Shown here piece by piece: positions 1,417 to 51,206 of a stretch of 64,000 bases of DNA (position 1 is the first letter of the stretch; every line of letters starts with the position of its first letter). The notes beneath the pieces are model-generated. The model was not told the DNA's origin and did no database searches. It saw only the letters and a program-made list of their open reading frames with translations. The stretch is from a phage. The stretch lies in the sequence record PQ327946.1, one strand, 5' to 3'. The translations under genes and the position numbers were made by a program.

Positions 1417-1424
1417 TATAAATA
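1417..1424 (+). promoter_or_regulatory. late promoter (TATAAATA) for gene 9
   Basis: Exact T4 late consensus TATAAATA 33 nt upstream of gene 9 ATG. Confidence 0.7.
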
Positions 1425-1456
1425 GAATATAATATCGGACAACAAAAGGCAGAATT

Positions 1457-2329
1457 ATGGCATTTTTTAAGCAAACTCCTAAACAATTAATCGATACCGG
1501 CGAAATTGGTAATGCCTCAACAGGTGATATCTTATTCGACGGTGGTAATAAAATAAATGACGATATCAACGCTATTTACAATGCATTTGGCGATCAACGT
1601 AAAATGGCCGTAGCAGATGGAACCGGACCAACAGGTCAAACTATTCATGCCACAGGCTATTATCAAAAAGGAAAGGCTGTCGATTATCAAACTCCTATTA
1701 AACCAGGCACTATGCATGATATTGATGCTTCTGATGGCGGTGTGATTGTTATTATTGACCGTCCTGAATTAGGTGACTCTGTAGAATTCATAAACTCTAA
1801 TGGGTCTATTTCTGTTAACAATCCTTTAAGTATCCAAGTAACCGATGGTTCAATTAAAGGCGTTCTTAATAATCTTGTTATTTCCACCCCTTATACCCAT
1901 GTTGTTCTTCGTTGTATTGAAATTAATGGGCCAACTTCAGTATGGAATTATTCTACTGATAGCATGTTTGGGCAGAAAGAATCTCCTGTCGATGGGACTT
2001 GGAGTCTTACAGGAAACACAGTTTCTATTCCTCTCTTTTATCGTACAGATTATAACATGGCTAAATTGCTTGTTACATGCCAATCCGCTGACGGTAGAAA
2101 AATAAAAACATGCGAAATAAATATTCTAATAGATACAATTAACTCAGAAGTTCTTTCTACCGAATTTGCAGTAATGCGAGTTGGTAATGTAGATGAAACC
2201 GACGAGATTGCTAATATTAGCTTTAGTATTATTAACAACTTTGTTACTATGACGATTACATCTGATATTATTGGATTACGTTCGGCAGTTAAAATTATCT
2301 CAACTCAGAAAATTGGGGTCGCTCAATAA
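1457..2329 (+). CDS. 9: baseplate wedge protein gp9 (long tail fibre socket)
   Basis: 290 aa, T4 gp9-like sequence and size; preceded by TATAAATA late promoter; synteny. Confidence 0.9.
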   Translation: MAFFKQTPKQLIDTGEIGNASTGDILFDGGNKINDDINAIYNAFGDQRKMAVADGTGPTGQTIHATGYYQKGKAVDYQTPIKPGTMHDIDASDGGVIVIIDRPELGDSVEFINSNGSISVNNPLSIQVTDGSIKGVLNNLVISTPYTHVVLRCIEINGPTSVWNYSTDSMFGQKESPVDGTWSLTGNTVSIPLFYRTDYNMAKLLVTCQSADGRKIKTCEINILIDTINSEVLSTEFAVMRVGNVDETDEIANISFSIINNFVTMTITSDIIGLRSAVKIISTQKIGVAQ

Positions 2330-4134
2330 TGAAACAAAATATTAAAATTGGTAACGTCGTTGATGACGGACAAGGCGATTACCTTCGTCGAGGTGGTGAA
2401 AAAATAAATGAGAACTTTGACGAAATCTATTATGAATTAGGTGATGGTGAAGTTCCTTATTCCGCTGGCGCATGGAAGACTTATGATGCGGCTGATGGTC
2501 TTAATCTTAAGGCGGCTTGGGGTAAATCTTATGCAATTAATACTACTTCTGGCCGGGTTTCGGTAAATCTTCCTAAAGGGACAATTGCAGACTATAATAA
2601 AGTTATTCGTGCTCGTGACGTATTTGCAACTTGGAACATTAACCCTGTTACTTTAATTCCGGCAAACGGAGACACGATTAAAGGTTCTTCATCTCCGGTA
2701 GAAATTAACGTTCAGTTCTCTGATTTAGAATTAGTTTATTGTGCTCCTGGACGTTGGGAATATATCAAGAACAAACAAATTGATAAAATAGTTAGCTCTG
2801 ACATTAGTAATGTTGCTCGTAGAGAATATCTGGTTGAAACCCAAGGACAGACCGATTTCATGGATGTTTTTAACGGGACCTCTTATAACGTTAACAACAT
2901 TCGCGTAAAACATCGTGGCAACGAATTGTATTATGGTGATGTATTCAGTGATAATAGTGATTTTGGTTCTCCAGGCGCTAATCCCGGTGAACTGGTTGCA
3001 CTTGATGGATTTAATATCAGATTACGCCAACCATGTAATGTTGGGGACACCGTACAAATTGAGACATTCCTAGATGGTGTTTCTCAGTGGCGTAGTTCAT
3101 ATACTCGTCGCCAAGTTCGCATTTTAGATAGTAAATTGACTGCTAAAAAGTCTATTGACGGAAGTATTTACGTCACTGATTTGAGTACGTTCCGGTCTAT
3201 TCCATTTACAGCATTTGGTATTAATCCTACGGAACCACCTAACCCGAATTCGTTAGAAGTTCGCTTCAATGGTATTCTCCAAGAATTAGCTGGCACTGTT
3301 GGTACTCCTATTTTCCGTTGTGAAGGTGTGGATGCTGATTCTGAAGAGTCATGCACAAACCTCGGCGGGACATGGACTCAATCGTATACAGATTATGCGA
3401 TTGAGTATACTGATAATATCCCTAGCGCAATTTTGTTTGATCGTCAATTTGAAGACCAAGACATTATTACCATCACATGGTTTAATAACGATTTAGGAAC
3501 TCTTCTTGAAATGGACGAAATCCTTGATGTCGCTGATGAGAAATATGTTTCTCAAGGGTCTAACATTGAAATTACTGGTGACGTTGCATTAACCGATTTC
3601 GATAAAATTGGATGGCCTAATGTAGAACCTGTTCCTAAGTATGAACGTGAATTCTCGACTATCTCAGCAATATTTGATACAATTTATCCTGTCGGGACTA
3701 TTTACGAAAATGCGGTTAACCCTAATAATCCGGCAACTTATTTAGGTTTTGGTTCGTGGAAAATTTGGGGACAAGGCAAAGTATTAGCAGGTTGGAATGA
3801 TGACGCGTCAGATCCTAATTTTGCATTAAATAATAATGACCTTGACGTCAATGGTAACCCTACTCATACCGCAGGTGGTACCGTTGGTGTAACAACCATC
3901 ACATTAGAAAATGCTGATTTACCAGCTACACAAACCGATGAAAAGGTTCTTATTTCTGATGATAATGGTACAGTAATTATAGGCGGTTGCCAATATGACC
4001 CAGATGAAGAAGGTCCTATTTACACTAAATATCGTGAAGACCATGCAAAGACTAATGGATCTCATGTTCCAGCGCGTTCTATAACTAATATTCAGCCATC
4101 TATAACTGTATACCGTTGGGTAAGGATTGCATAA
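2329..4134 (+). CDS. 10: baseplate wedge protein gp10
   Basis: 601 aa, size and position as T4 gp10; ATGA-type overlap with gp9 stop. Confidence 0.9.
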
Positions 4135-4793
4135 TGACTGTACTTAATACAAAGGCGGGAGTTATTTCCCGTCATGCTGATTTTTTAAATTACAGAAAAA
4201 ATCCAGCTCAAATTGATGTTTTAAACAACCAAGCTGTAGGTTCCGTGACTATTTCTCAGTTAGCTCGCGGTTTTTATGATGCTAACGTAGAATCTGCAAT
4301 AAATGATGTCCATAATATGGCACGAGCTGATATTGGTACTGTTATCACAAACACTTCAGGCATATCACCTGAAGGTACAGCACAAGTTGATTATTGGACT
4401 TTTTCTGGTGATGTTCTCGACGATACTTTGGCCCCTGGAACGCCGGTCGTTATTAACGTATTTGGACTTGCTGTTAAAGCAACAATCGGTATGACTGATA
4501 ACGAATTAACGGCACAAGTTCGTATAGCTTTACAAGAAGCCATTGCTAATCAAATCGCTATTTCTTCTTATAAAGACCATCCGACCGAAGGTAATAAACT
4601 TCAGGTGACATATTTAGATAACCAACGTCATGTGTTGCCAACATATGCTTCGTTTGGTGTAACAATTTCACAAGAAATTTTGTCTGAAGCAAAATCCGGA
4701 TACGGAACATGGAATTTATTGGGTGCCCAAACGGTTACTCTTGATAACCATAACACTCCTACCGTTTTCTACCACTTTGTGAGAGCCTCATGA
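4134..4793 (+). CDS. 11: baseplate wedge protein gp11 (short tail fibre attachment)
   Basis: Start moved to the ATG overlapping gp10 stop (TAATG); product [17 protein letters not shown]... matches T4 gp11 N-terminus; track ORF starts 6 codons earlier. Confidence 0.9.
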
Positions 4794-6373
4794 GTAATAA
4801 CAATACATACCAACACGTTTCAAACGAATCCATTTACGTTGAATTCGACCCTACGGGGTCGAATTTTCCAGATACAGTCACTAATGTCCAAGCCGCATTA
4901 GCTGCTATTTCTCCTTCAGGTGTTAATGGCGTACCGGAAGCAACAACTACTACACCAGGAATTATTCAAATAGCTACTCCACAAGAAGTTATTGATGGAT
5001 TAGATAATAGTAAAGCTGTTACTCCGGCAACACTGAATGCTCGTCTACAATATCCTAATGCAACCGAAACACAATATGGCTTAACTCGTTATGCTACTGA
5101 AGATGAAGCAGTAACCGGAGCTATTGACGATGCATCAATTACTCCGCTTAAATTGAATCAAAAAATAGACAATGTATTTCAGACAAAAGTGTCAACAGAA
5201 GCAACAAATGGTGTAATTAAAATTTCAACTTCTGCCGCGGCATTAGCTGGTTCTGACGATACAACGGCAATGACTCCGTTAAAAACGCAACAATTAGCAA
5301 TTAAACTTATTTCGCAAATTGCTCCAAATAATAGTGACGCCACCGAATCTATTACAGGTGTTGTTCGTTTGGCTACAGTTGCTCAAGCACAACAAGGCAC
5401 CCTGCGTGAAGGCTATGCAATTTCACCTTATACCTTTATGAATTCAGTAGCATCAGAAACTAATAAAGGTGTCGTTAAACTAGGGACACAGACTGAAGTA
5501 AATAGTAACAACTCTTCAGTTGTAGTGACCGGCGCAACATTAAACGGGCGTGGGGCTACAACTTCTTTACGTGGAGTTGTTCGTTTAACTACACAAGCGG
5601 GTAGCCAATCAGGTGGTGATGGTTCTTCTGCCCTTGCTTGGAATGCTGATGTTATCCACCAACGAGGTGGACAAACTATTAATGGCACGCTTCGCATTAA
5701 TAATACGTTGACGGTTGGTTCTGGTGGCGCTAATATAACGGGTAATGTCAATATGACTGGTGGTTATATTCAAGGCAATCGTATTGTGACTCAAAATGAA
5801 TTAGACCGAATTCTTCCAGTTGGCGCTATTACAATGTGGGCTGCAGATAGTTTACCGAGTTCTGACTGGCGTTTCTGTCACGGTGGGACTGTTTCTGCTT
5901 CAGAATGTCCGGTATATGCTTCCAGAATTGGAACACGATATGGTGGTAGTTCTTCTAACCCAGGCTTGCCTGATATGCGTGGATTATTTGTTCGCGGCTC
6001 AGGTCGTGGTAACCATTTAACTAACCCTAATGTTAATGGTAATGACCAATTCGGTAAGCCTCGTCTGGCGGTAGGTTGTACTGGTGGATATGTTGGTGAA
6101 GTGCAAAAACAACAGATGTCATATCATAAGCATGCTGGTGGTTTTGGTGAACATGACGATTCCGGTGCATTTGGTAATACTCGTCGTTCAAACTTTGTTG
6201 GTACTCGTAAAGGACTTGACTGGGATAACCGTTCGTATTTTACTAACGAGGGATATGAAATTGATCCAGCGTCTCAGCGTAACTCTAAATATACCATGAA
6301 TCGTCCGGAATTAATTGGAAATGAAACTCGCCCATGGAATATTTCTTTAAACTATATCATTAAGGTAAAATAA
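4790..6373 (+). CDS. 12: short tail fibre protein gp12
   Basis: 527 aa as in T4 gp12; repetitive Thr/Gly/Val-rich fibre sequence; synteny. Confidence 0.92.
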
Positions 6374-7821
6374 TGACTGATATAACTCTGGTAGATTTAC
6401 CATATGTTGACGGCCCGCCAGACGCGGGTCAGAGTCGTATTGAATGGATTAAAAACGATGAAGAAATAACAGGTGCTGACACAAAATACGGTTCTGAAGG
6501 TGTAATGAACCGTCCTATTGTTGAAGTTCAACGTAACGTAGAAGCGTTAGATGTTAATATTAAAACTATAGCATCTTCTTTGAATACGGCCAATGAAGAT
6601 ATCAAAGTTATTCAAGGTATTTTAGATGTTTCCGGGGATGTTGATGCTCTTGCACAGATAGGCCAGAACACCCAAGATATCGATGTCATTAAAGTCACAG
6701 TTCAAACCCATGCTAGTGAATTGAATGATTTGAATAAACATATTGATGCGAATACTGATGATATTGGCGTTTATAATCAGGAAACAGATTCAGTTTATAG
6801 AACGGTTCGTAACGACCTGCTTTGGATTAAAAATGAATTAGGACAATATACCGGTCAAGATATTAATGGGGTTCCTACTCCAGGAAATGATAGCACTGGT
6901 ATGAAACGCCGTATTATGACTAATAGCTCCGTGATTGTTGACCACGGTGTTCGATTAACTGATCTAGAAACTAAATTTGCTGATTCTGACGTCGGCTCTT
7001 TAACTAATGAAGTCGAACACTTACGCGAAGAAATGGGACCTCGCACTTCTTTCACTACTCCAGTATTTAGTCGTCTTTCCGGTATTGATTTAACTTTGTC
7101 GCGTCAAAATGCTGACTTAGATGGCATTAAACAGTCTATTGGGTATCCTAATACGACTTCTATTATTACTACAACTAATGCGAATAGTTCAGCAATAAAC
7201 GACATTAATCTTGAGCTCAATCAATCGGGTGGTATTAAACCTCGTTTGACTACAGTAGAAACTGCCATTGGCACCGATGATTTGCCTACTACAATCCAAG
7301 GACGTATTAAACTCAATACTGATGCTATCGGAGCATTGAACACTGTTGTCGGCTCTGATTCTTCGTCAGGATTGCGTTTTAATGTGTCATGGTTAAATAA
7401 CGTAGTCGGTGTTGACGCTTCAGGTGGGAAACCTGAACCAGACGGCTCTTTGCTTTATCGTACTCGAGCGCTTGAAGGATCTATCGGTGAGATGAGTAAT
7501 GACGTTCAGAACATTCAAACTGATGTTGGGACTAATACCACAGGGATTAAGGGTTCTGTAAACACATTAAATACTCTTATAAATGGCACCAACCCAAATG
7601 GTTCGACTGTTGAAGAACGTGGTATATTGCCTACAGTTAAAAGTCATGATACGACAATTAATGGTTTAACTTCTAGAATTGCTACTCTTGAAACTGATTT
7701 AGCCGCCGCAGAAGCTGAAATCCAAACTCTTAAGGAAGCTGGATATATTGAAGATGCTCCTTCAGACGGTAAATTCTATGTTCGCAAAGATGGTGCATGG
7801 GTTGAACTTCCTACAGCTTAA
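6373..7821 (+). CDS. wac: fibritin (whisker/neck fibre) Wac
   Basis: 482 aa coiled-coil-rich protein ending in a foldon-like C-terminus GYIEDAPSDGKFYVRKDGAWVELPTA; synteny. Confidence 0.92.
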   Translation: MTDITLVDLPYVDGPPDAGQSRIEWIKNDEEITGADTKYGSEGVMNRPIVEVQRNVEALDVNIKTIASSLNTANEDIKVIQGILDVSGDVDALAQIGQNTQDIDVIKVTVQTHASELNDLNKHIDANTDDIGVYNQETDSVYRTVRNDLLWIKNELGQYTGQDINGVPTPGNDSTGMKRRIMTNSSVIVDHGVRLTDLETKFADSDVGSLTNEVEHLREEMGPRTSFTTPVFSRLSGIDLTLSRQNADLDGIKQSIGYPNTTSIITTTNANSSAINDINLELNQSGGIKPRLTTVETAIGTDDLPTTIQGRIKLNTDAIGALNTVVGSDSSSGLRFNVSWLNNVVGVDASGGKPEPDGSLLYRTRALEGSIGEMSNDVQNIQTDVGTNTTGIKGSVNTLNTLINGTNPNGSTVEERGILPTVKSHDTTINGLTSRIATLETDLAAAEAEIQTLKEAGYIEDAPSDGKFYVRKDGAWVELPTA

Positions 7822-7827
7822 TGAAAA

Positions 7828-7841
7828 GGGCCTTCGGGCCC
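7828..7841 (+). terminator. GC hairpin (UUCG loop) after wac
   Basis: GGGCCTTCGGGCCC; no clear U-run, so possibly an RNA-stabilising hairpin rather than a terminator. Confidence 0.4.
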
Positions 7842-7853
7842 TAAAGGATTTAT

Positions 7854-8780
7854 ATGTCAGGTTATAATGCACAAAACCCTAAAGAATTAAAGGACGTAAT
7901 ATTACGTCGTTTAGGCGCTCCTATTGTAAATGTTGAATTAACTACAGACCAAATTTATGATTGTATTTCACGAGCGTTAGAACTTTATGGCGAATACCAT
8001 TTTGACGGGTTGAATAAAGGTTTCCATGTATTTTTTGTTGATGACGAAGAAAAATACCGTCACGGCGTATTTGATATGCGCGGTTCTAACGTATTTGCTG
8101 TAACAAGAATTATAAGAACAAATGTTGGCTCTATTACTTCAATGGATGGTAATGCAACTTATCCATGGTTCACTGATTTCCTTTTAGGAATGGCAGGTGT
8201 TTCAGGTGGTATGGGTAGTAATTGTGGTAAATTCTACGGTCCGAACGCTTTTGGCGCTGACCTCGGGTATTATTCTCAATTAGTATCTTATATGGGTATG
8301 CTTCAAGATATGATTGCTCCTCTTCCAGATTTTTGGTTTAACTCTGCAAACGAGCAATTAAAAGTAATGGGTAACTTTAGACAGAAAGATGTCATTATCG
8401 TTGAATCGTATGTTCGCTCTTATATCGAGACCCATAAGATGGTAGGAAATACAGTAGGGTACGGACAGGTCGGTCCTCGTGATTCATGGTCTATTTCTGA
8501 ACGTTATGATAATCCAGACCATAATTTGGTCGGACGTCTAGTTGGTGAAGATCCTGCAACTAAACAAGGCGCATATAACAACCGCTGGGTTAAAGATTAT
8601 GCAACTGCATTAGCTAAAGAGCTTAACGGACAAATTCTTGCTAGACATCAAGGTATGATGTTACCTGGTGGCGTCACTGTTGATGGTGTTCGATTAATTG
8701 AAGAAGCTCGTTTAGAGAAAGAAGCTTTACGAGAAGAGTTATATTTACTGGACCCTCCTGCAGGTATTTTGGTAGGTTAA
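7854..8780 (+). CDS. 13: neck protein gp13
   Basis: 308 aa, T4 gp13 size and position. Confidence 0.9.
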
Positions 8781-8781
8781 T

Positions 8782-9417
8782 ATGGCAACATACTACAGAT
8801 TGTATATTACAACATTTGAAACATCCACCGGTATAAAGATTTATGGTGGTAAACACAAATCAGTTTACGAAGACCCTTCAAAAGACCCTTATACTGGGTC
8901 TGGCACCTTTATACGAAGGGCCAAAAGAAAATACGGTCCGTCTTGTATAAAAGAAATTATATGGTCTAAGCCATTTGAATCTAAAGCTCTAATGGATGAA
9001 GCTGAAGAGTTACTGGTAGATGAATTATCCATTTTAGAAAATTGCGCAAATCTTGTTAAAGGTGGTGCAGGCGGAAGGTCGTATATTAACCCAGAAGATA
9101 ATCCATCTATAGGACAAAAACGTTCAGCCCAATCTAAAAAGAAAATGTCTGACGCCGCAAAATCAAGAAAATGGACTGAAGAAGGGTTAAGAAAACGTAA
9201 AGAATCTACAGCAAGAATGTGGAAAGATTTCAAACATAGACATCCTGATTTTTCTGGTTCAAAAAATCCAGCAGCTCGAAAAGTTAGTGTAAATGGTAAA
9301 ATATTTAACACCTGCAAAGAATGTGGTGAAGAATTTAATATCACATCAAGCGCGGTTATAGGCCGATGCAAAAACAACAAACCTAAATGGGCAGGATGGA
9401 ATTATGTCGACGTATAA
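8782..9417 (+). CDS. seg-like GIY-YIG homing endonuclease (putative), inserted between genes 13 and 14
   Basis: N-terminal [21 protein letters not shown] (degenerate GIY-x10-YIG), shared D-x-Y-x-GSG...KYG motif with the two other seg-like ORFs in this window, basic K/R-rich C-terminal half; no counterpart at this position in T4. Confidence 0.6.
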
Positions 9418-10168
9418 TTCAAATTTATTTGCAAAGTTAGAAAACCGAGAAGGCTATTCTAAAACTAATGAAACCGAGATTTTAAACAAATACGTGAACT
9501 TCAACAAATACGAAAATAGCCAGACATTAGCCGATGTTCTAGTGGCAGAAAGCATACAGATGCGCGGTATTGAATGTTTTTATGTTCCACGTGAATATGT
9601 TGCCGTGGACCTTATCTTTGGTGAGGACCTTAAAAATAAATTTACTAAAGCATGGAAATTTGCTGCATATCTGAACTCTTTTGAAGGTTATGAAGGAGCG
9701 AAATCGTTCTTCAGCAACTTCGGAATGCAAGTTCAAGACGAAGTTACATTATCTATTAACCCAGGTCTTTTCAAACACCAGGTCAACAATCAGGAGCCCA
9801 AGGAAGGTGATTTAATATACTTCCCAATGGATAACAGTTTGTTTGAGATTAACTGGGTTGAACCATATGACCCATTCTATCAAGTAGGTAAAAATGCGAT
9901 TCGTAAAATTACTGCAGGCAAGTTTATTTACTCTGGCGAAGAAATCAATCCGGTGCTTCAGAAAAATGAAGGTATCAATATACCTGAATTTAGTGACTTG
10001 GAACTTAACCCTGTTAGAAATCTTGACGGTATCCATGACATTAATATCGATGAATATTCTGAAGTTGAGCAAATCAATTCAGAGGCAAGTGAATACGTTG
10101 AGCCGTATGTAGTAGTTAACAACCGTGGTAGACAAAATTCACCATTTGACGATGGGTTTATGAATTAA
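9404..10168 (+). CDS. 14: neck protein gp14
   Basis: 254 aa, T4 gp14 size and position. Confidence 0.88.
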
Positions 10169-10220
10169 TAAATAGATAAGATAAAGCAAACACCGGTCGA
10201 AAGGCCGGTTAGGAGAAATG

Positions 10221-11042
10221 ATGTTTGGTTATTTTTACAACTCGTCGTTCAGGCGATATATCACAATGATGGGCGATTTGTTTTCAAATATCCAAGTTAA
10301 CCGTCAATTGTCTACAGGCAATAAATTAATTAGAGTTCCTATTACGTACGCATCTAAAGAGCACTTTATGATGAAACTTAATAAATGGACCTCTATAAAC
10401 TCACAAGAAGATGTGGCTAAAGTCGAAACTATTCTACCGCGTATAAATCTTCAAATGGTAGATTTCGTTTATAACCCAACGTTTAAAACGAATATATTGA
10501 ATAACTCTCTTTTGAGTAAATCGACTAAGGATATTGTAGACCAATACAACCCATCACCAATTAAAATGATTTTTGAACTGAGCATCTTTACTCGTTATGA
10601 AGATGATATGTTCCAAATCGTTGAGCAAATTATTCCATATTTTCAGCCGCATTTTAATACGACTATGATTGAGCAATATGGGCAGGATATTCCATTTGAA
10701 AGGGATATTAAAGTCGTATGGATGTCAGCAGCAATGGATGAACAAATAGACGGTGATAATTTATCCCGTCGACGTTTAGAGTGGTCATTAACATTTGAAG
10801 TAAATGGATGGATGTATCCTCCGGTAGGCGCAGCAGAAGGCCTTATTAAAACGACTTATCTTGATTTTCATGCTAATGAACGAGACCTTCAATCAGCCGC
10901 CAGCGTTTTTGAATCAGTTGATACAGAAATTAAACCGAGAGACGTTGAAGCACAAGATTGGAATGGCGAAGTTGAACAAACTTATACTCATGATATTCCA
11001 ATCCCGACTCCACCAACCCCTCCTGGTCCTAGAAAACAATAA
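10221..11042 (+). CDS. 15: tail sheath stabiliser / tail completion protein gp15
   Basis: MFGYFYNSSFRRY... matches T4 gp15 N-terminus; second ATG chosen for SD spacing (AGGAGA). Confidence 0.92.
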   Translation: MFGYFYNSSFRRYITMMGDLFSNIQVNRQLSTGNKLIRVPITYASKEHFMMKLNKWTSINSQEDVAKVETILPRINLQMVDFVYNPTFKTNILNNSLLSKSTKDIVDQYNPSPIKMIFELSIFTRYEDDMFQIVEQIIPYFQPHFNTTMIEQYGQDIPFERDIKVVWMSAAMDEQIDGDNLSRRRLEWSLTFEVNGWMYPPVGAAEGLIKTTYLDFHANERDLQSAASVFESVDTEIKPRDVEAQDWNGEVEQTYTHDIPIPTPPTPPGPRKQ

Positions 11043-13368
<2,326 letters not shown>

Positions 13369-19804: not shown

Positions 19805-21373
19805 ATGACTACTATCAAAACTAAAGCTCAGCTCGTAGACAAATGGAAAGAACTGCTGGAAGGTGAAGGCCTGCCGGAAATCGCTAATAGCAAGCAGGCT
19901 ATTATCGCTAAAATCTTCGAAAACCAGGAAAAAGATTTCGAAGTATCCCCTGAATATAAAGACGAGAAAATCGCTCAGGCATTTGGTTCTTTCTTGACCG
20001 AAGCTGAAATTGGTGGGGACCACGGTTATAATGCTCAGAACATCGCAGCAGGTCAAACCTCCGGTGCAGTAACCCAGATTGGGCCGGCAGTTATGGGTAT
20101 GGTTCGTCGTGCTATTCCTAATCTGATCGCTTTTGATATTTGTGGTGTTCAGCCTATGAACAGCCCTACCGGTCAGGTATTTGCTCTCCGTGCAGTATAT
20201 GGTAAAGACCCTATCGCTGCTGACGCTAAAGAAGCTTTCCATCCGATGTATGCTCCAGACGCGATGTTCTCTGGTCAGGGTGCTGCTAAGAAATTCCCAG
20301 CTCTGGCTGCTAGCACACAAACCGTTGTAGGTGATATCTATACTCACTTCTTCCAGGAAACTGGTACTGTGTATCTACAAGCTTCCGCTGTAGTAACAAT
20401 CGATGCTGGCGCTACCGATGCAGCTAAATTAGATGCTGAAATTAAGAAACAAATGGAAGCTGGTGTACTGGTAGAAATCGCTGAAGGTATGGCTACTTCT
20501 ATCGCTGAACTTCAGGAAGGTTTCAATGGTTCTACCGACAACCCGTGGAACGAAATGGGCTTCCGTATCGACAAACAAGTTATTGAAGCTAAATCTCGTC
20601 AGCTGAAAGCAGCTTACTCCATCGAATTGGCACAAGACCTCCGTGCAGTACACGGTATGGATGCTGATGCTGAACTGAGCGGTATTCTTGCTACTGAAAT
20701 TATGCTGGAAATCAACCGTGAAGTTGTTGACTGGATTAACTACTCCGCTCAGGTTGGTAAATCTGGTATGACTAATATCGTTGGTTCTAAAGCTGGTGTA
20801 TTTGACTTCCAGGACCCGATTGATATCCGTGGTGCTCGTTGGGCCGGTGAAAGCTTTAAAGCTCTGTTGTTCCAGATTGATAAAGAAGCAGTTGAAATTG
20901 CTCGTCAAACCGGTCGTGGTGAAGGTAACTTCATTATCGCTTCCCGTAACGTAGTTAACGTACTGGCTTCAGTTGATACTGGTATTTCTTACGCTGCACA
21001 GGGTCTGGCTTCTGGTTTTAATACCGACACTACTAAGTCTGTATTTGCCGGTGTACTTGGTGGTAAATACCGCGTATACATCGACCAGTATGCTAAACAG
21101 GATTACTTCACCGTTGGTTACAAAGGCGCTAACGAAATGGATGCAGGTATTTACTATGCTCCTTACGTTGCACTTACCCCACTGCGTGGTTCCGATCCTA
21201 AGAACTTCCAGCCGGTAATGGGCTTTAAAACTCGTTACGGTATCGGTGTTAACCCGTTTGCTGAAAGTTCCCTGCAGGCTCCAGGTGCTCGCATCCAGTC
21301 CGGTATGCCGTCTATCCTGAACAGCCTTGGTAAGAACGCTTACTTTAGACGCGTCTACGTTAAAGGAATTTAA
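19805..21373 (+). CDS. 23: major capsid protein gp23
   Basis: 522 aa; near-identical to T4 gp23 (…GLPEIANSKQAIIAKIFENQEKDF… to C-terminal NAYFRRVYVKGI). Confidence 0.98.
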   Translation: MTTIKTKAQLVDKWKELLEGEGLPEIANSKQAIIAKIFENQEKDFEVSPEYKDEKIAQAFGSFLTEAEIGGDHGYNAQNIAAGQTSGAVTQIGPAVMGMVRRAIPNLIAFDICGVQPMNSPTGQVFALRAVYGKDPIAADAKEAFHPMYAPDAMFSGQGAAKKFPALAASTQTVVGDIYTHFFQETGTVYLQASAVVTIDAGATDAAKLDAEIKKQMEAGVLVEIAEGMATSIAELQEGFNGSTDNPWNEMGFRIDKQVIEAKSRQLKAAYSIELAQDLRAVHGMDADAELSGILATEIMLEINREVVDWINYSAQVGKSGMTNIVGSKAGVFDFQDPIDIRGARWAGESFKALLFQIDKEAVEIARQTGRGEGNFIIASRNVVNVLASVDTGISYAAQGLASGFNTDTTKSVFAGVLGGKYRVYIDQYAKQDYFTVGYKGANEMDAGIYYAPYVALTPLRGSDPKNFQPVMGFKTRYGIGVNPFAESSLQAPGARIQSGMPSILNSLGKNAYFRRVYVKGI

Positions 21374-21430: not shown

Positions 21431-22090
21431 CTATAGCTTAAAACAATCATCGCGTTCATTAATCCAATTTCTTATAGTTTTTGCGGATACGTTAAAGAAT
21501 TCGGCAGCGTAATCGTAGTGGTTAAATTCATGACCTTTAATAGAAATATCCACAAATACAAATTTCTTACCTTTATTAGAATTCTTTCTAATTTTTGCTT
21601 TATGCTCTTCTGATAGTTTTCTACCTTTAAGATGAGAATCTCTATTTTTATAAAACTTTTTATTTGATATAGATTTGTTTTCTCGATGTTCTTTAGATTC
21701 TTTAGAACCTAATTTCTTTTTAGATATTTTGGCCCGAACTTCTTCAGTCATACCAGCTTTTGTCTTTTCGGATAACATCTCACGATACCCAGGTTCCTGT
21801 AAAGCTACTATAACAGGATTACCCTTGCCGCCTAAGGCGGCATTATAAGTATCTGTTCTCATGACAAAAGCCTCGTCAACTAGTTCGGCTTCCTTAGCAT
21901 ACATCTCTTCAGATGTTTCGAAATTGAAAAGGATTTCCTTTTTAAAATTCTCTAAGCCGTATTTCTTTATGGATTTTACTATGTTAACCCCGGAACCCAT
22001 ATAAGAATCGTTAACATCTGTAGTGGCATGGGCTCCAATATAAATCTTGTTATTAATGAGATTGGTTATTTTGTAAATTAAATAATTCAT
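21431..22090 (-). CDS. segD: seg-like GIY-YIG homing endonuclease (segD position)
   Basis: N-terminal YLIYKITNLINNKIYIGAH (GIY...YIG) plus DSYMGSG...KKYG motif; sits between genes 23 and 24 on the opposite strand, as T4 segD. Confidence 0.8.
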   Translation of the reverse strand: MNYLIYKITNLINNKIYIGAHATTDVNDSYMGSGVNIVKSIKKYGLENFKKEILFNFETSEEMYAKEAELVDEAFVMRTDTYNAALGGKGNPVIVALQEPGYREMLSEKTKAGMTEEVRAKISKKKLGSKESKEHRENKSISNKKFYKNRDSHLKGRKLSEEHKAKIRKNSNKGKKFVFVDISIKGHEFNHYDYAAEFFNVSAKTIRNWINERDDCFKL

Positions 22091-22463: not shown

Positions 22464-23747
22464 ATGAGTAAAATCCAAAAATTATTGCGTGAATCTACAA
22501 CGTCTATTAGCAACTCAATTGGTCGCCCAAATCTCGTTGCTTTGACTCGCGCTACGACTAAACTAATATATTCTGACATTGTAGCAACACAAAGAACTAA
22601 TCAACCTGTTGCTGCTTTTTATGGTATCAAATATCTTAACCCGGATAACGAATTCACATTTAAAACTGGTGCTACTTATGCTGGCGAAGTTGGATATGTA
22701 GACCGAGAAAAAATTACTGAGCTCACAGAAGAATCAAAAGTCACACTAAATAAAGGCGATTTTTTCAAATATAATAATATCGTCTATAAAGTGTTAGAAG
22801 ATACACCATTTGCAGATATTCAAGAAAGTGATCTAGAATTAGCTCTTCAGATTGCGGTCGTTCATTTAAAGGTACGGTTATTTTCAGATGCAGCGGTAAC
22901 AAGCAAATTTGAAAGCTCTGATAGCGAAATTTCTGATGCAAGATTCCAGATTAATAAATGGCAAACTTCGGTCAAATCTCGTAAACTTAAAACTGGACTC
23001 ACGGTTGAATTAGCGCAAGATTTGGAAGCGAATGGATTTGATGCCCCTAACTTCTTAGAAGATTTGCTTGCTACTGAAATGGCTGATGAAATTAATAAAG
23101 ATATTCTTCAGTCTTTAATTACTGTATCGAAACGTTATAAAGTTACTGGAATTACTGACACCGGATTTATTGACTTGAGCTATGCATCCGCTCCAGAAGC
23201 AGGTCGTTCATTATATCGAATGGTGTGTGAAATGGTATCACACATTCAAAAAGAGACAACTTATACTGCAACGTTTTGTGTAGCCTCAGCTCGTGCAGCT
23301 GCTATTCTTGCTGCTTCCGGTTGGTTGAAACATAAGCCAGAAGATGACAAGTATCTTTCACAAAATGCTTATGGATTCTTGGCAAATGGATTACCTCTTT
23401 ACTGCGATACCAACAGCCCGTTAGATTATGTTATTGTGGGTGTTGTAGAAAATATCGGTGAAAAAGAAATTGTAGGGTCCGTCTTTTATGCTCCATACAC
23501 TGAAGGAGTAGATTTAGATGACCCGGAACATGTTGGTGCATTTAAAGTTGTAGTTGATCCAGAAAGCTTGCAACCGTCTATCGGATTATTGGTTAGATAT
23601 GCTTTATCAGCAAATCCTTACACAGTAGCAAAAGATGAAAAAGAAGCGAGAATAATTGATGGCGGGGACATGGATAAAATGGCAGGACGTTCAGACTTGT
23701 CTGTTTTACTCGGTGTTAAATTGCCTAAAATTATCATTGATGAATAA
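22464..23747 (+). CDS. 24: capsid vertex protein gp24
   Basis: 427 aa, gp23 paralogue; T4 gp24 size and position; TATAAATA upstream. Confidence 0.93.
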   Translation: MSKIQKLLRESTTSISNSIGRPNLVALTRATTKLIYSDIVATQRTNQPVAAFYGIKYLNPDNEFTFKTGATYAGEVGYVDREKITELTEESKVTLNKGDFFKYNNIVYKVLEDTPFADIQESDLELALQIAVVHLKVRLFSDAAVTSKFESSDSEISDARFQINKWQTSVKSRKLKTGLTVELAQDLEANGFDAPNFLEDLLATEMADEINKDILQSLITVSKRYKVTGITDTGFIDLSYASAPEAGRSLYRMVCEMVSHIQKETTYTATFCVASARAAAILAASGWLKHKPEDDKYLSQNAYGFLANGLPLYCDTNSPLDYVIVGVVENIGEKEIVGSVFYAPYTEGVDLDDPEHVGAFKVVVDPESLQPSIGLLVRYALSANPYTVAKDEKEARIIDGGDMDKMAGRSDLSVLLGVKLPKIIIDE

Positions 23748-49176: not shown

Positions 49177-49357
49177 TTAACCATTCAATTGCCTGGTCGA
49201 CGTTATCAAATATACTGCCGTCCAACCATTCTTCATGTTCATAGTCCAGCACATCAATACCGAACCGTCCATTTACTAAAGGCCATACGCAGAAGAAAAA
49301 GCATTTACGTTTTTCAATTTCTTCGATTGTACGAAAAATCTTTTCGATATTATTCAT
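49157..49357 (-). CDS. hypothetical protein (66 aa)
   Basis: ORF in cd-pseT interval, overlapping neighbours by a few codons. Confidence 0.45.
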   Translation of the reverse strand: MNNIEKIFRTIEEIEKRKCFFFCVWPLVNGRFGIDVLDYEHEEWLDGSIFDNVDQAIEWLNENYVR

Positions 49358-50072
49358 AGGTTTTCCATTTGCGGCCTAATTGCCAATCAGGATGGCTCAA
49401 TCTAGGGTCGTTTTCATCTGTTGTAGAAGATTTCTTACCTGAAATATGGATAAGCCATTTTCTGGATTTAGCTGCTTTAGAATAGTTTTCTTTTGCCTTA
49501 TCTGAACGAATCTTACCTTTATTCGCTTCGGATATTTTATTACCCCATTCTATAATAGCTTCTTCGCTCATAAAATCTTTTACATTTTTACCGTACATAG
49601 GATTATTTTCGCCTTCAAATGAATTACCATTTTTAAGACGACTTTCTTTAGATTTAATCCCATGCCCTGGTAATTTCTTGCCTTTAATCCATGGCACGGC
49701 ACCGTTTTTATATCTCTGTTTTTGTGTTTCTGAAATTTTTAATGAAGTTTCAGGGCTGGAATTAACATTAATACGGTTTTCATTGATATAATCCCAGCCT
49801 CCTTCTCCACCAGGTTTCAAATTATAATTAGTATCCAATTTTATAAATTCTTTAGTTACTAATTCGGCTTCTAAATCATATGCTTCTTGTTTAGTTTCAA
49901 ATATTTTTATGATTTCTTTATTAAAAGAATCTTTACCATATTTTGATTCGGCATTTTTAAAAGCTGTACCAGAACCTAAATAAGAATCATTTTCTTTTAA
50001 GGTCTTATGAACCCCTATATAAATTTTGTTGTTAACCAAACATGTGGTTTTATACACAGTGTACTTTTCCAT
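49350..50072 (-). CDS. seg-like GIY-YIG homing endonuclease
   Basis: Start moved to ATG (MEKYTVYKTTCLVNNKIYIGVHKT); GIY-YIG module plus DSYLGSG...KYG motif; TATAAATA late promoter 20 nt upstream; no seg gene at this position in T4. Confidence 0.75.
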   Translation of the reverse strand: MEKYTVYKTTCLVNNKIYIGVHKTLKENDSYLGSGTAFKNAESKYGKDSFNKEIIKIFETKQEAYDLEAELVTKEFIKLDTNYNLKPGGEGGWDYINENRINVNSSPETSLKISETQKQRYKNGAVPWIKGKKLPGHGIKSKESRLKNGNSFEGENNPMYGKNVKDFMSEEAIIEWGNKISEANKGKIRSDKAKENYSKAAKSRKWLIHISGKKSSTTDENDPRLSHPDWQLGRKWKTYE

Positions 50073-50091
50073 TAGAATCACCTCTATAGAT

Positions 50092-50099
50092 ATTTATAC
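50092..50099 (-). promoter_or_regulatory. late promoter (TATAAATA on minus strand) for seg-like endonuclease
   Basis: Minus strand reads GTATAAATATCTATAGAGGTGATTCTA-ATG. Confidence 0.6.

Positions 50100-50119: not shown

Positions 50120-51206
<1,087 letters not shown>

Follow-up and report, generated by a model that had tools for sequence, protein, structure and literature searches.

T4-like phages have many homing endonucleases close to essential genes, and these are well understood. The closest described systems are the Seg enzymes of T4 (SegA-G, among which SegB, SegE, SegF and SegG are best studied), which are free-standing between conserved phage genes and co-oriented with them, join an N-terminal GIY-YIG domain to a basic NUMOD3 linker and a C-terminal DNA-binding domain, are carried as promoter-less cassettes on the host message, are optional among close relatives, and have donor flanking sequence travelling along with them. 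A second reference is I-TevI, the endonuclease of the T4 td intron (PDB entries 1LN0/1MK0 for the catalytic domain and 1I3J/1T2T for the DNA-binding domain). Hairpins that sequester the ribosome-binding site (RBS) occur in I-TevI and segB, and T4 segC is located at 5.1/5.3. SegB and SegE have been shown to home (PMC2330249), and promoter-less seg cassettes (segC, segF, segG) together with embedded host signals are known in T4 (PMC2988022). The 13/14 junction of T4 carries no seg gene (Table 1 of Edgell et al., 2010, PMC2988022).

The stretch of phage DNA analyzed here (sequence record PQ327946.1, 64,000 nt, hereafter the window) is from a Mosigvirus-type T4-like phage (Straboviridae). Over the region under study, identity is 99.8% to Escherichia phage vB_EcoM_JQD51 and 98-99.6% to F2, moskry, mogra, SQ17 and others, which are without exception Mosigvirus-type Straboviridae. 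Gene 13 ends with a TAA at 8780, so that the ATG-initiated ORF of 211 codons that follows starts 1 nt past this stop; it overlaps the start of gene 14 by 14 nt. Genes 13 and 14, between which it is placed, are both complete, and outside this pair lie fibritin (wac) and gp15 (Table 1). A preliminary description of the window, made from the letters alone, had given the same position relative to both neck genes and had noted that T4 is not known to have a gene there; the coordinates were confirmed, and the absence from T4 agrees with the published gene table cited above. Neither terminal repeats nor a target-site duplication were found at the insert, which also shows no compositional anomaly, and a transposon-like element was rejected on these grounds. 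By tblastn the ORF has ~33% identity to T4 SegC. We consider it probable (roughly 0.8) that its product is a free-standing Seg-type GIY-YIG homing endonuclease, functional now or until very recently, with the 13/14 junction of T4-like phages as its homing site.

Table 1. Features of the gene 13-gene 14 region of the window, with the evidence for each.
Feature	Position	Strand	Evidence
Gene 13, neck protein, upstream flank	7854..8780	+	308 aa; PHROG 211 head-tail adaptor (gp13)
Captured translation start: native Shine-Dalgarno region, ATG and first codons of gene 14 (ATGGCAAC)	8766..8789	+	identity to empty alleles
Putative free-standing Seg-type homing endonuclease gene	8782..9417	+	ORF, 211 aa; PHROG 314 (homing endonuclease) at E 2.6e-37; canonical Seg enzymes by hhalign, 99.3%
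Divergent GIY-YIG nuclease domain, aa 1-~98	8782..9075	+	RLY8...IY21GG...Y37xGSG...KYG...E75...N90...GG
Basic linker with NUMOD3-like motif, aa ~99-158 (motif aa 105-123)	9076..9255	+	NUMOD3 E 0.006; lowest pLDDT aa 93-99
C-terminal I-TevI-type helix-turn-helix DNA-binding domain, aa ~159-211	9256..9414	+	PF20987 9.9e-5; Foldseek 1i3j
Replacement gene 14 initiation region (AGGA, 7 nt spacer, ATG 9404)	9390..9417	+	read from sequence
Recoded 5' end of gene 14, codons 1-17	9404..9454	+	16-17 differences from empty alleles
Gene 14, neck protein, downstream flank, predicted target gene	9404..10168	+	254 aa; Pfam T4_neck-protein E 2e-127; divergence pattern

The C-terminal half of the protein, in which the preliminary description had seen a K/R-rich DNA-binding tail, is unambiguously a NUMOD3 motif followed by an I-TevI-type DNA-binding region. 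NUMOD3 was matched by 11 of the 12 close family members (best E 3.9e-4) and PF20987 likewise by 11 of 12 (best 1.6e-10). A profile built from the 12 members matched PDB 1I3J, the DNA-binding domain of I-TevI (E 2.7e-5), and the same structure was the top Foldseek match of the AlphaFold model (prob 1.00). The pLDDT minimum of this model marks the domain boundary (Table 1). The resulting modular layout, GIY-YIG domain, NUMOD3-type linker and C-terminal helix-turn-helix, is that of the Seg enzymes, and on this predicted architecture the ORF belongs with the free-standing GIY-YIG homing endonucleases of T4-like phages. Compared with I-TevI (245 aa), the protein is shorter, no zinc finger was detected in its linker, and the DPYxGSG insertion between the YIG strand and the first helix is Seg-like.

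In some GenBank records the gene is named as if it were intron-encoded (the labels 'group I intron endonuclease' and 'intron-associated endonuclease' appear in records H7 and H46), and TIGR01453, a model of group I intron endonucleases, matched aa 95-208 weakly (27 bits; the cut-off is 56). This match covers only the DNA-binding part that both kinds of enzyme share. Moreover, no Rfam family, group I introns included, was found in 7700-10300 at E<=1, and the flanks are two separate complete genes with their own stop and start. Location within a group I intron was rejected, and an intron-encoded endonuclease has practically no probability as an explanation of the locus, which sets the ORF apart from I-TevI in this respect also.

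The HMM search for GIY-YIG and NUMOD domains that the preliminary description had proposed gave a divided outcome, in which NUMOD3 and the I-TevI DNA-binding domain were matched while the GIY-YIG models stayed silent on the N-terminus. Residues 1-107 had zero matches in Pfam even at E<=10 (PF01541 and PF19835 included), NCBIfam gave no N-terminal match, and curated GIY-YIG HMMs detected the catalytic domain in none of the 12 close family members. Among 39 more distant relatives, the GIY-YIG Pfam models produced one weak match. Because these models miss nearly the whole subfamily, the miss reflects model coverage and not decay of the window copy. Sequence searches of the PDB with the protein, with the 12-member profile and with a 39-member N-domain profile (dominated by heterogeneous C-terminal tails) did not reach the catalytic domain of I-TevI, and even the canonical seg of the window failed to reach it.

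Membership of the N-terminal half in the GIY-YIG superfamily is nevertheless supported by BLASTP, hhalign, the AF2 model and residue conservation. BLASTP aligned the protein with the two other seg products of the window, at 39% identity over 127 aa for the gene at 49350-50078(-), which itself passes PF01541 at 30 bits (E 3e-14), and at 25% identity over 198 aa for the gene at 21431-22087(-) (E 2e-9); the D-x-Y-x-GSG and KYG signatures, which had earlier been noticed as common to all three, fall within both alignments. The enzyme of phage Phi1, which passes PF19835, was matched at E 9e-17. Profile-profile comparison bridged the gap left by the HMMs, since hhalign links the family to four canonical Seg-type enzymes that pass the Pfam GIY-YIG/SegE thresholds (PF01541/PF19835) with 99.3% probability (E 2.5e-20, 193 columns). 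The fold of the model is alpha/beta, with a three-stranded antiparallel sheet flanked by helices, as in the GIY-YIG superfamily.

The motif tyrosines lie in R6-L7-Y8 and I20-Y21-G22-G23, and the residues around them are degenerate relative to the consensus, much as the preliminary description had it. Y8, Y21 and G23 are invariant in the 12 close and the 39 distant relatives; in the latter, Y37, G39, G41, E75 and G94 are invariant as well, and R6, N90, K50 and Y51 nearly so. Conservation in these 39 sequences reproduces the Tyr...Tyr...Glu...Asn layout. In hhalign, E75 and N90 pair with the E and N found in canonical Seg enzymes, and judged from their position they would be the equivalents of Glu75 and Asn90 of I-TevI. 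An equivalent of the catalytic Arg27 of I-TevI was sought among the conserved residues and none was assigned: helix 42-51 holds zero invariant Arg, K50 is invariant or nearly so, position 46 is mostly R/K, and the near-invariant R6 lies in strand 1; R6, R46 and K50 are the candidates. Relative to the T4 Seg enzymes, the family has a set of motifs of its own (RLY / IYGGK[HR]HS / DPYxGSG / WS / CxN) and forms a divergent catalytic subfamily that PF01541 and PF19835 do not detect.

Degenerate GIY and YIG motifs, the lack of an assigned Arg27 equivalent and an N-terminus without a Pfam or NCBIfam GIY-YIG match are also what a catalytically dead or decaying remnant would present, one kept only because the RBS, start and first codons of gene 14 are embedded in it; the gene 14 start signals are indeed inside the ORF. 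We regard this as unlikely. The Pfam models fail on the subfamily as a whole (one weak match in 39), and the Tyr/Tyr/Glu/Asn set is invariant or near-invariant across the same 39 distant relatives. Reading frames are intact, with zero stops or frameshifts, in the 13 Mosigvirus copies and in 5 cross-genus orthologs, and dN/dS is 0.13-0.34 in both domains (with dS near saturation), which points to purifying selection on both. Furthermore, a near-identical cassette sits on backgrounds that are 20-48% diverged nearby, which argues for recent transfer. Judged by its frames and substitution pattern, the endonuclease gene is not decaying.

Distribution of the gene was determined by megablast of the 13-ORF-14 segment against 50,697 phage records. 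The full arrangement was recovered from 13 records (12 phages) among ~155 close Mosigvirus-level records, while the central 622 bp are absent from ~140 records that are 95-98% identical and in which gene 14 directly follows gene 13. The seg-less Mosigviruses include vB_Eco_F27 (OP870146, 96.5-97.2 kb) and O157 typing phage 3. The empty Mosigvirus junction reads TAA-T-ATG (gene 13 stop, T, gene 14 start) and is seamless and translationally coupled. In an alignment of 12 genomes over ~14 kb (6 occupied and 6 empty), the mean pairwise divergence was the same for occupied-occupied, occupied-empty and empty-empty pairs, except at the junction. SQ17, a carrier, differs by 0.4-3% from the seg-less Shf125875 across genes 9-wac and by 20-48% from all other carriers in the same genes, whereas its cassette differs from theirs by only 0-0.8%; therefore the cassette sits on distinct lineages. 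Genes 13-18 differ by only ~1-3% across Mosigviruses. Comparison of the 13/14 junction across T4-like genomes, which the preliminary description had put forward, thus found the ORF in 13 of ~155 close records and on differing backgrounds, so that it is not an ancestral gene present at this site in all relatives. Overall, the computational checks proposed in the preliminary description favored its reading of the ORF. Such presence/absence polymorphism among close relatives with homologous flanks is typical of Seg genes.

Homologs with 53-63% identity occupy the identical junction in four other lineages, co-oriented and overlapping the gene 14 ATG. They were found in MX01 only among ~47 close records of Dhakavirus, in G37-3, G5211 and Brandy among ~58 records of Krischvirus, in 9 of ~33 Gaprivervirus-type records (P8, TH40, RZ, SP18 and VR26 among the carriers), and in 16 of ~112 records of Klebsiella phages. 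That position, orientation and gene 14 overlap are alike in five lineages, and that the Seg lineages are old (53-62% identity), could be taken to mean an ancestral neck-region gene that descended vertically and was repeatedly lost. However, inter-genus Seg identity is flat at 53-62% while gp13 identity ranges from 50 to 89% (MX01 vs P8, gp13 89% and Seg 58%; window vs Earwig, gp13 50% and Seg 58%). Since the Seg proteins do not follow the divergence of their flanks, repeated loss of a vertically inherited gene is disfavored. Occupancy within each genus is only ~2-27%, the empty junctions are seamless and coupled, the cassette is near-identical across diverged Mosigvirus backgrounds, and every occupied allele carries a foreign-looking patch at the 5' end of gene 14, which repeated precise deletion would leave unexplained. 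An ancestral origin is highly improbable on this evidence.

The edges of the insertion were located by comparison with empty alleles. Identity to them spans the last ~115 nt of gene 13 and the following 8 nt (ATGGCAAC), with which gene 14 starts in those alleles; it runs through 8789, and difference begins at 8790, which sets the left edge of the foreign DNA at 8789/8790. Given this identity, the endonuclease ORF uses the native Shine-Dalgarno region and start codon of gene 14, and the endonuclease begins with MATY, as gp14 does. The new ATG of gene 14 is formed from endonuclease codons (..AAT TAT GTC..) among the last of the ORF, and this start arrangement is common to MX01, P8, G37-3 and Earwig. 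Unlike the T4 Seg enzymes, which have no counterpart at the 13/14 site (free of homing endonuclease genes in T4; PMC2988022 Table 1), the ORF takes over the start codon of a downstream essential gene and supplies a replacement.

Downstream of the new start, codons 2-17 of gene 14 (9407-9454) differ from the empty alleles at 16-17 of 48 nt, with only four amino-acid changes (A2S, D5N, K6S, G16E); beyond this patch gene 14 differs by ~1%. The patch is perfectly linked to the endonuclease gene, being present at >=98.8% identity only in the 13 occupied records. A search for its donor returned nothing above 79% identity outside these 13 records, the next best sequences in the collection being 76-79% identical.

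Patches of this kind were found in all five lineages when differences per 30 nt were counted from the gene 14 ATG between an occupied and a congeneric empty allele. The successive counts were 10, 6, 1, 2, 3, 1, 0... in Mosigvirus, 8, 6, 7, 0, 0... in Dhakavirus, 7, 3, 9, 0, 1, 0... in the Gaprivervirus type, 6, 5, 7, 0, 0... in the Klebsiella phages, and 16, 16, 12, 8, 0, 0... in Krischvirus. Over the first 60-120 nt of gene 14, occupied and congeneric empty alleles are thus 16-52 nt apart, and after that they differ by ~0. Across the five lineages the recoding is mostly synonymous and falls in the first 50-120 nt of gene 14, and the 3' end of gene 13 is mostly unchanged. It is this shared recoding that leads us to place the target of the endonuclease in the 5' end of gene 14, rather likely within its first ~50-120 nt. 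We read the patch either as the stretch between insertion and break or as the recognition region itself, which would in both cases always be co-converted and would immunize the carrier. SegF with gene 56 and SegG with gene 32 offer analogues in T4 (in part after PMC2988022). A divergence of ~35% would by itself push crossovers past the patch, so the linkage does not prove a cut inside it.

With respect to expression, the ORF lies within the co-oriented late block wac-13-14-15. A perfect late promoter (TATAAATA) was not found on the + strand of 1417-13361, and one-mismatch TATAAATA sites occur at chance frequency. Scans for sigma-70 promoters and for terminators gave results at or below the shuffled expectation, and in the search for an RBS-sequestering hairpin the folds at both starts were no stabler than shuffles (z +1.2, +1.4 and -0.1). 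With no promoter, terminator or hairpin signal, the ORF is a promoter-less cassette within the wac-13-14-15 block, of the kind that segC, segF and segG represent in T4, and late expression is plausible from its gene context.

Taken with the domain architecture, these observations suggest the following course of events. Having no promoter of its own, the gene would be transcribed on the late wac-13-14-15 message and translated from the former RBS and start codon of gene 14. During co-infection with a seg-less relative, the helix-turn-helix domain would bind the empty junction or the 5' end of gene 14, and the tethered GIY-YIG domain would cut both strands within about the first 50-120 nt of gene 14. 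Repair by recombination would then use the donor as template, so that the endonuclease gene is copied along with the neighboring part of gene 14 (intronless homing with co-conversion). Presumably the donor itself would be immune, since its site is interrupted by the insertion and its gene 14 is recoded at the 5' end, mostly synonymously. As the Shine-Dalgarno region, ATG and first codons of gene 14 lie inside the ORF, imprecise deletion would be lethal, which may favor retention of the cassette.

A domesticated nuclease or DNA-binding protein, serving in exclusion of competitors, in autoregulation or repression of the neck operon, or in local recombination or amplification, would differ from this in its purpose. 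Precedents for such roles exist, in that I-TevI is both a repressor (of its own promoter) and an endonuclease (PMC2988022) and that SegB is reported to promote amplification of anti-defense loci (PMC13096335); also, the protein would be produced from gene 14's own, presumably efficient, start site. We nonetheless hold domestication to be very unlikely, as no sign of a second function is seen at the locus, the sporadic distribution together with a linked recoded patch on the target side is a classic signature of homing, and exclusion of competitors would use an identical cleavage mechanism and is compatible with homing.

The probable Seg-type homing endonuclease described here is not the only kind of GIY-YIG enzyme at this site. 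In Krischvirus, the junction also holds two canonical SegE-type enzymes, 'SegC' of Phi1 (EF437941, phi1p149.1) and an enzyme of KFS-EC (YP_010097173), both encoded by GIY-YIG plus I-TevI-DNA-binding-domain genes lying co-oriented at the exact 13/14 junction. The Phi1 enzyme is only 29% identical to that of the window, and its catalytic domain is of the canonical SegE type (PF19835, 29.5 bits). The KFS-EC enzyme has 271 aa, and the gene 14 beside it is unrecoded over its first ~110 nt, unlike that of the window, which implies a different target position. With at least three GIY-YIG lineages using it, the 13/14 junction is a hot spot.

A more far-reaching reading has, in our view, about even odds. 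The family of the window could be a distinct Seg lineage with a catalytic domain that escapes the curated HMMs and perhaps a relocated catalytic basic residue, homing specifically to the gene 14 5' end in at least five Straboviridae genera. It would spread as a self-contained 'start-swap' cassette that takes over the gene 14 start and brings with it a new Shine-Dalgarno sequence, ATG and recoded 5' patch, by which gene 14 is restored and the carrier immunized. If so, the 13/14 junction would be a contested homing hot spot, at which at least three lineages of GIY-YIG enzymes cut at different positions.

The literature search found no paper describing or testing a Seg family or homing site at 13/14. 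Same-site genes have been labeled 'segC' in the records of Phi1 and of Shigella phage SP18 since ~2007-2010, a name given by similarity only; the SP18 gene belongs to the family of the window (P8-type, DNA 96% identical to P8). Identical or >=99% identical proteins in the 13 phage records are named 'homing endonuclease', 'GIY-YIG endonuclease' or 'putative endonuclease' in GenBank. What is modestly new is a catalytic subfamily that the HMMs overlook, the recoding on the target side in five genera, the exchanged start signals of gene 14, and the presence of three endonuclease lineages at one junction; otherwise this is an ordinary homing-endonuclease finding that adds little conceptually. For annotation, the lesson is that a whole Seg-type GIY-YIG subfamily is invisible to PF01541, PF19835 and TIGR01453. 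The locus further provides a natural example, in five genera, of what would be intronless homing into a late structural operon with a predicted and sharply delimited target, and the way in which the cassette rewires the translation start of an essential gene is relevant to how selfish nucleases may spare their hosts and become hard to lose.

Naming of the subfamily in public records is inconsistent ('hypothetical protein', 'intron-associated endonuclease' and 'segC' are all in use). Empty and occupied alleles of the junction are both present in sequenced, cultured phages.

The entire N-terminus of gp14 is replaced in the seg+ Krischvirus G37-3 (positions 2117-2240 of comparison record L006), with two additional residues (MIQYNSNLFARLENGSGYDKT... 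versus MFNNTLFARLESQKDYENT...). Because this replacement resembles the Tevenvirinae-type N-terminus of the cassette in the window (YNSNLFA.LEN), its sequence hints at a cross-subfamily origin of the cassette together with its flank. Further into the gene, positions 9460-9515 of the window (gene 14 nt ~57-115) were compared with comparison records L014-L019. Seg-less Mosigviruses carried two haplotypes there, about 7% apart over the interval compared, and the F27/O157tp3-like haplotype was found in all seg+ genomes examined (6/6). Either a longer co-conversion tract or a leftover from the first recipient background may account for this pattern.

A profile search with the family alignment, together with alignment A4, revealed that the divergent N-terminal nuclease domain is common to many metagenomic proteins (29-56% identity), the C-terminal regions of which are longer than, and unrelated to, those of the family. 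Phi1 and KFS-EC show the reverse pairing, a similar DNA-binding tail joined to a different nuclease subfamily. Judged from these comparisons, the nuclease and DNA-binding modules are evidently shuffled in a modular way.

The endonucleases of KFS-EC and Phi1 are two SegE-type enzymes also held at the Krischvirus 13/14 junction. In KFS-EC, gene 14 is unrecoded over its first ~110 nt, which suggests that its endonuclease would cleave at a different position.

Coordinates of the additional GIY-YIG genes and of the spacer hairpin
Feature	Source	Position	Strand	Location	Characteristics
segD-like GIY-YIG gene	window	21431-22090	-		TIGR01453 match
Third seg-type gene	window	49350-50081	-		PF01541 30 bits, PF19835 26.8 bits, NUMOD3
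KFS-EC GIY-YIG homing endonuclease	record L024	1287-2102		13/14 junction	canonical SegE-type catalytic domain
Phi1 GIY-YIG homing endonuclease	record L008	1501-2085		13/14 junction	canonical SegE-type catalytic domain
UUCG-tetraloop hairpin	window	7827-7842	+	32-nt wac/gene 13 spacer	

Two other seg-type genes lie in the window. The segD-like gene barely passes TIGR01453 (56.5 bits, cut-off 56.05) and falls under threshold for PF01541 and PF19835. It is antisense, flanked by the major capsid gene (19805-21373) and a gp24-like gene (22464-23747), the same odd placement as T4 segD. The third gene adjoins a polynucleotide-kinase-like gene (50120-51019), and a perfect late-promoter motif, TATAAATA, is located immediately upstream of it (50091-50098, minus strand).

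Unusual records were detected among the relatives. In NicPhage (OY726582; L013 8368-9316), the annotation gives two overlapping CDS for gene 15, and every gene downstream of it shows a +127-nt offset from its position in other Mosigviruses; this layout suggests either an assembly error or that gene 15 contains an insertion or a frameshift. The Dhakaviruses vB_EcoM_005 (MK295203), vB_EcoM_FB (MT682711) and IME540 (MT150133) gave odd spans or piece counts in the 13-14 matches, and a 'hypothetical protein' is listed alongside their neck genes. These genomes may contain more, different inserts at or near the junction.

Upstream of gene 13, the spacer between the end of wac (7821) and the gene 13 start (7854) holds a GGGCC-UUCG-GGCCC hairpin with a perfect stem. 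No T-run follows this hairpin, and the element looks like an mRNA-stabilising or processing element rather than a terminator.
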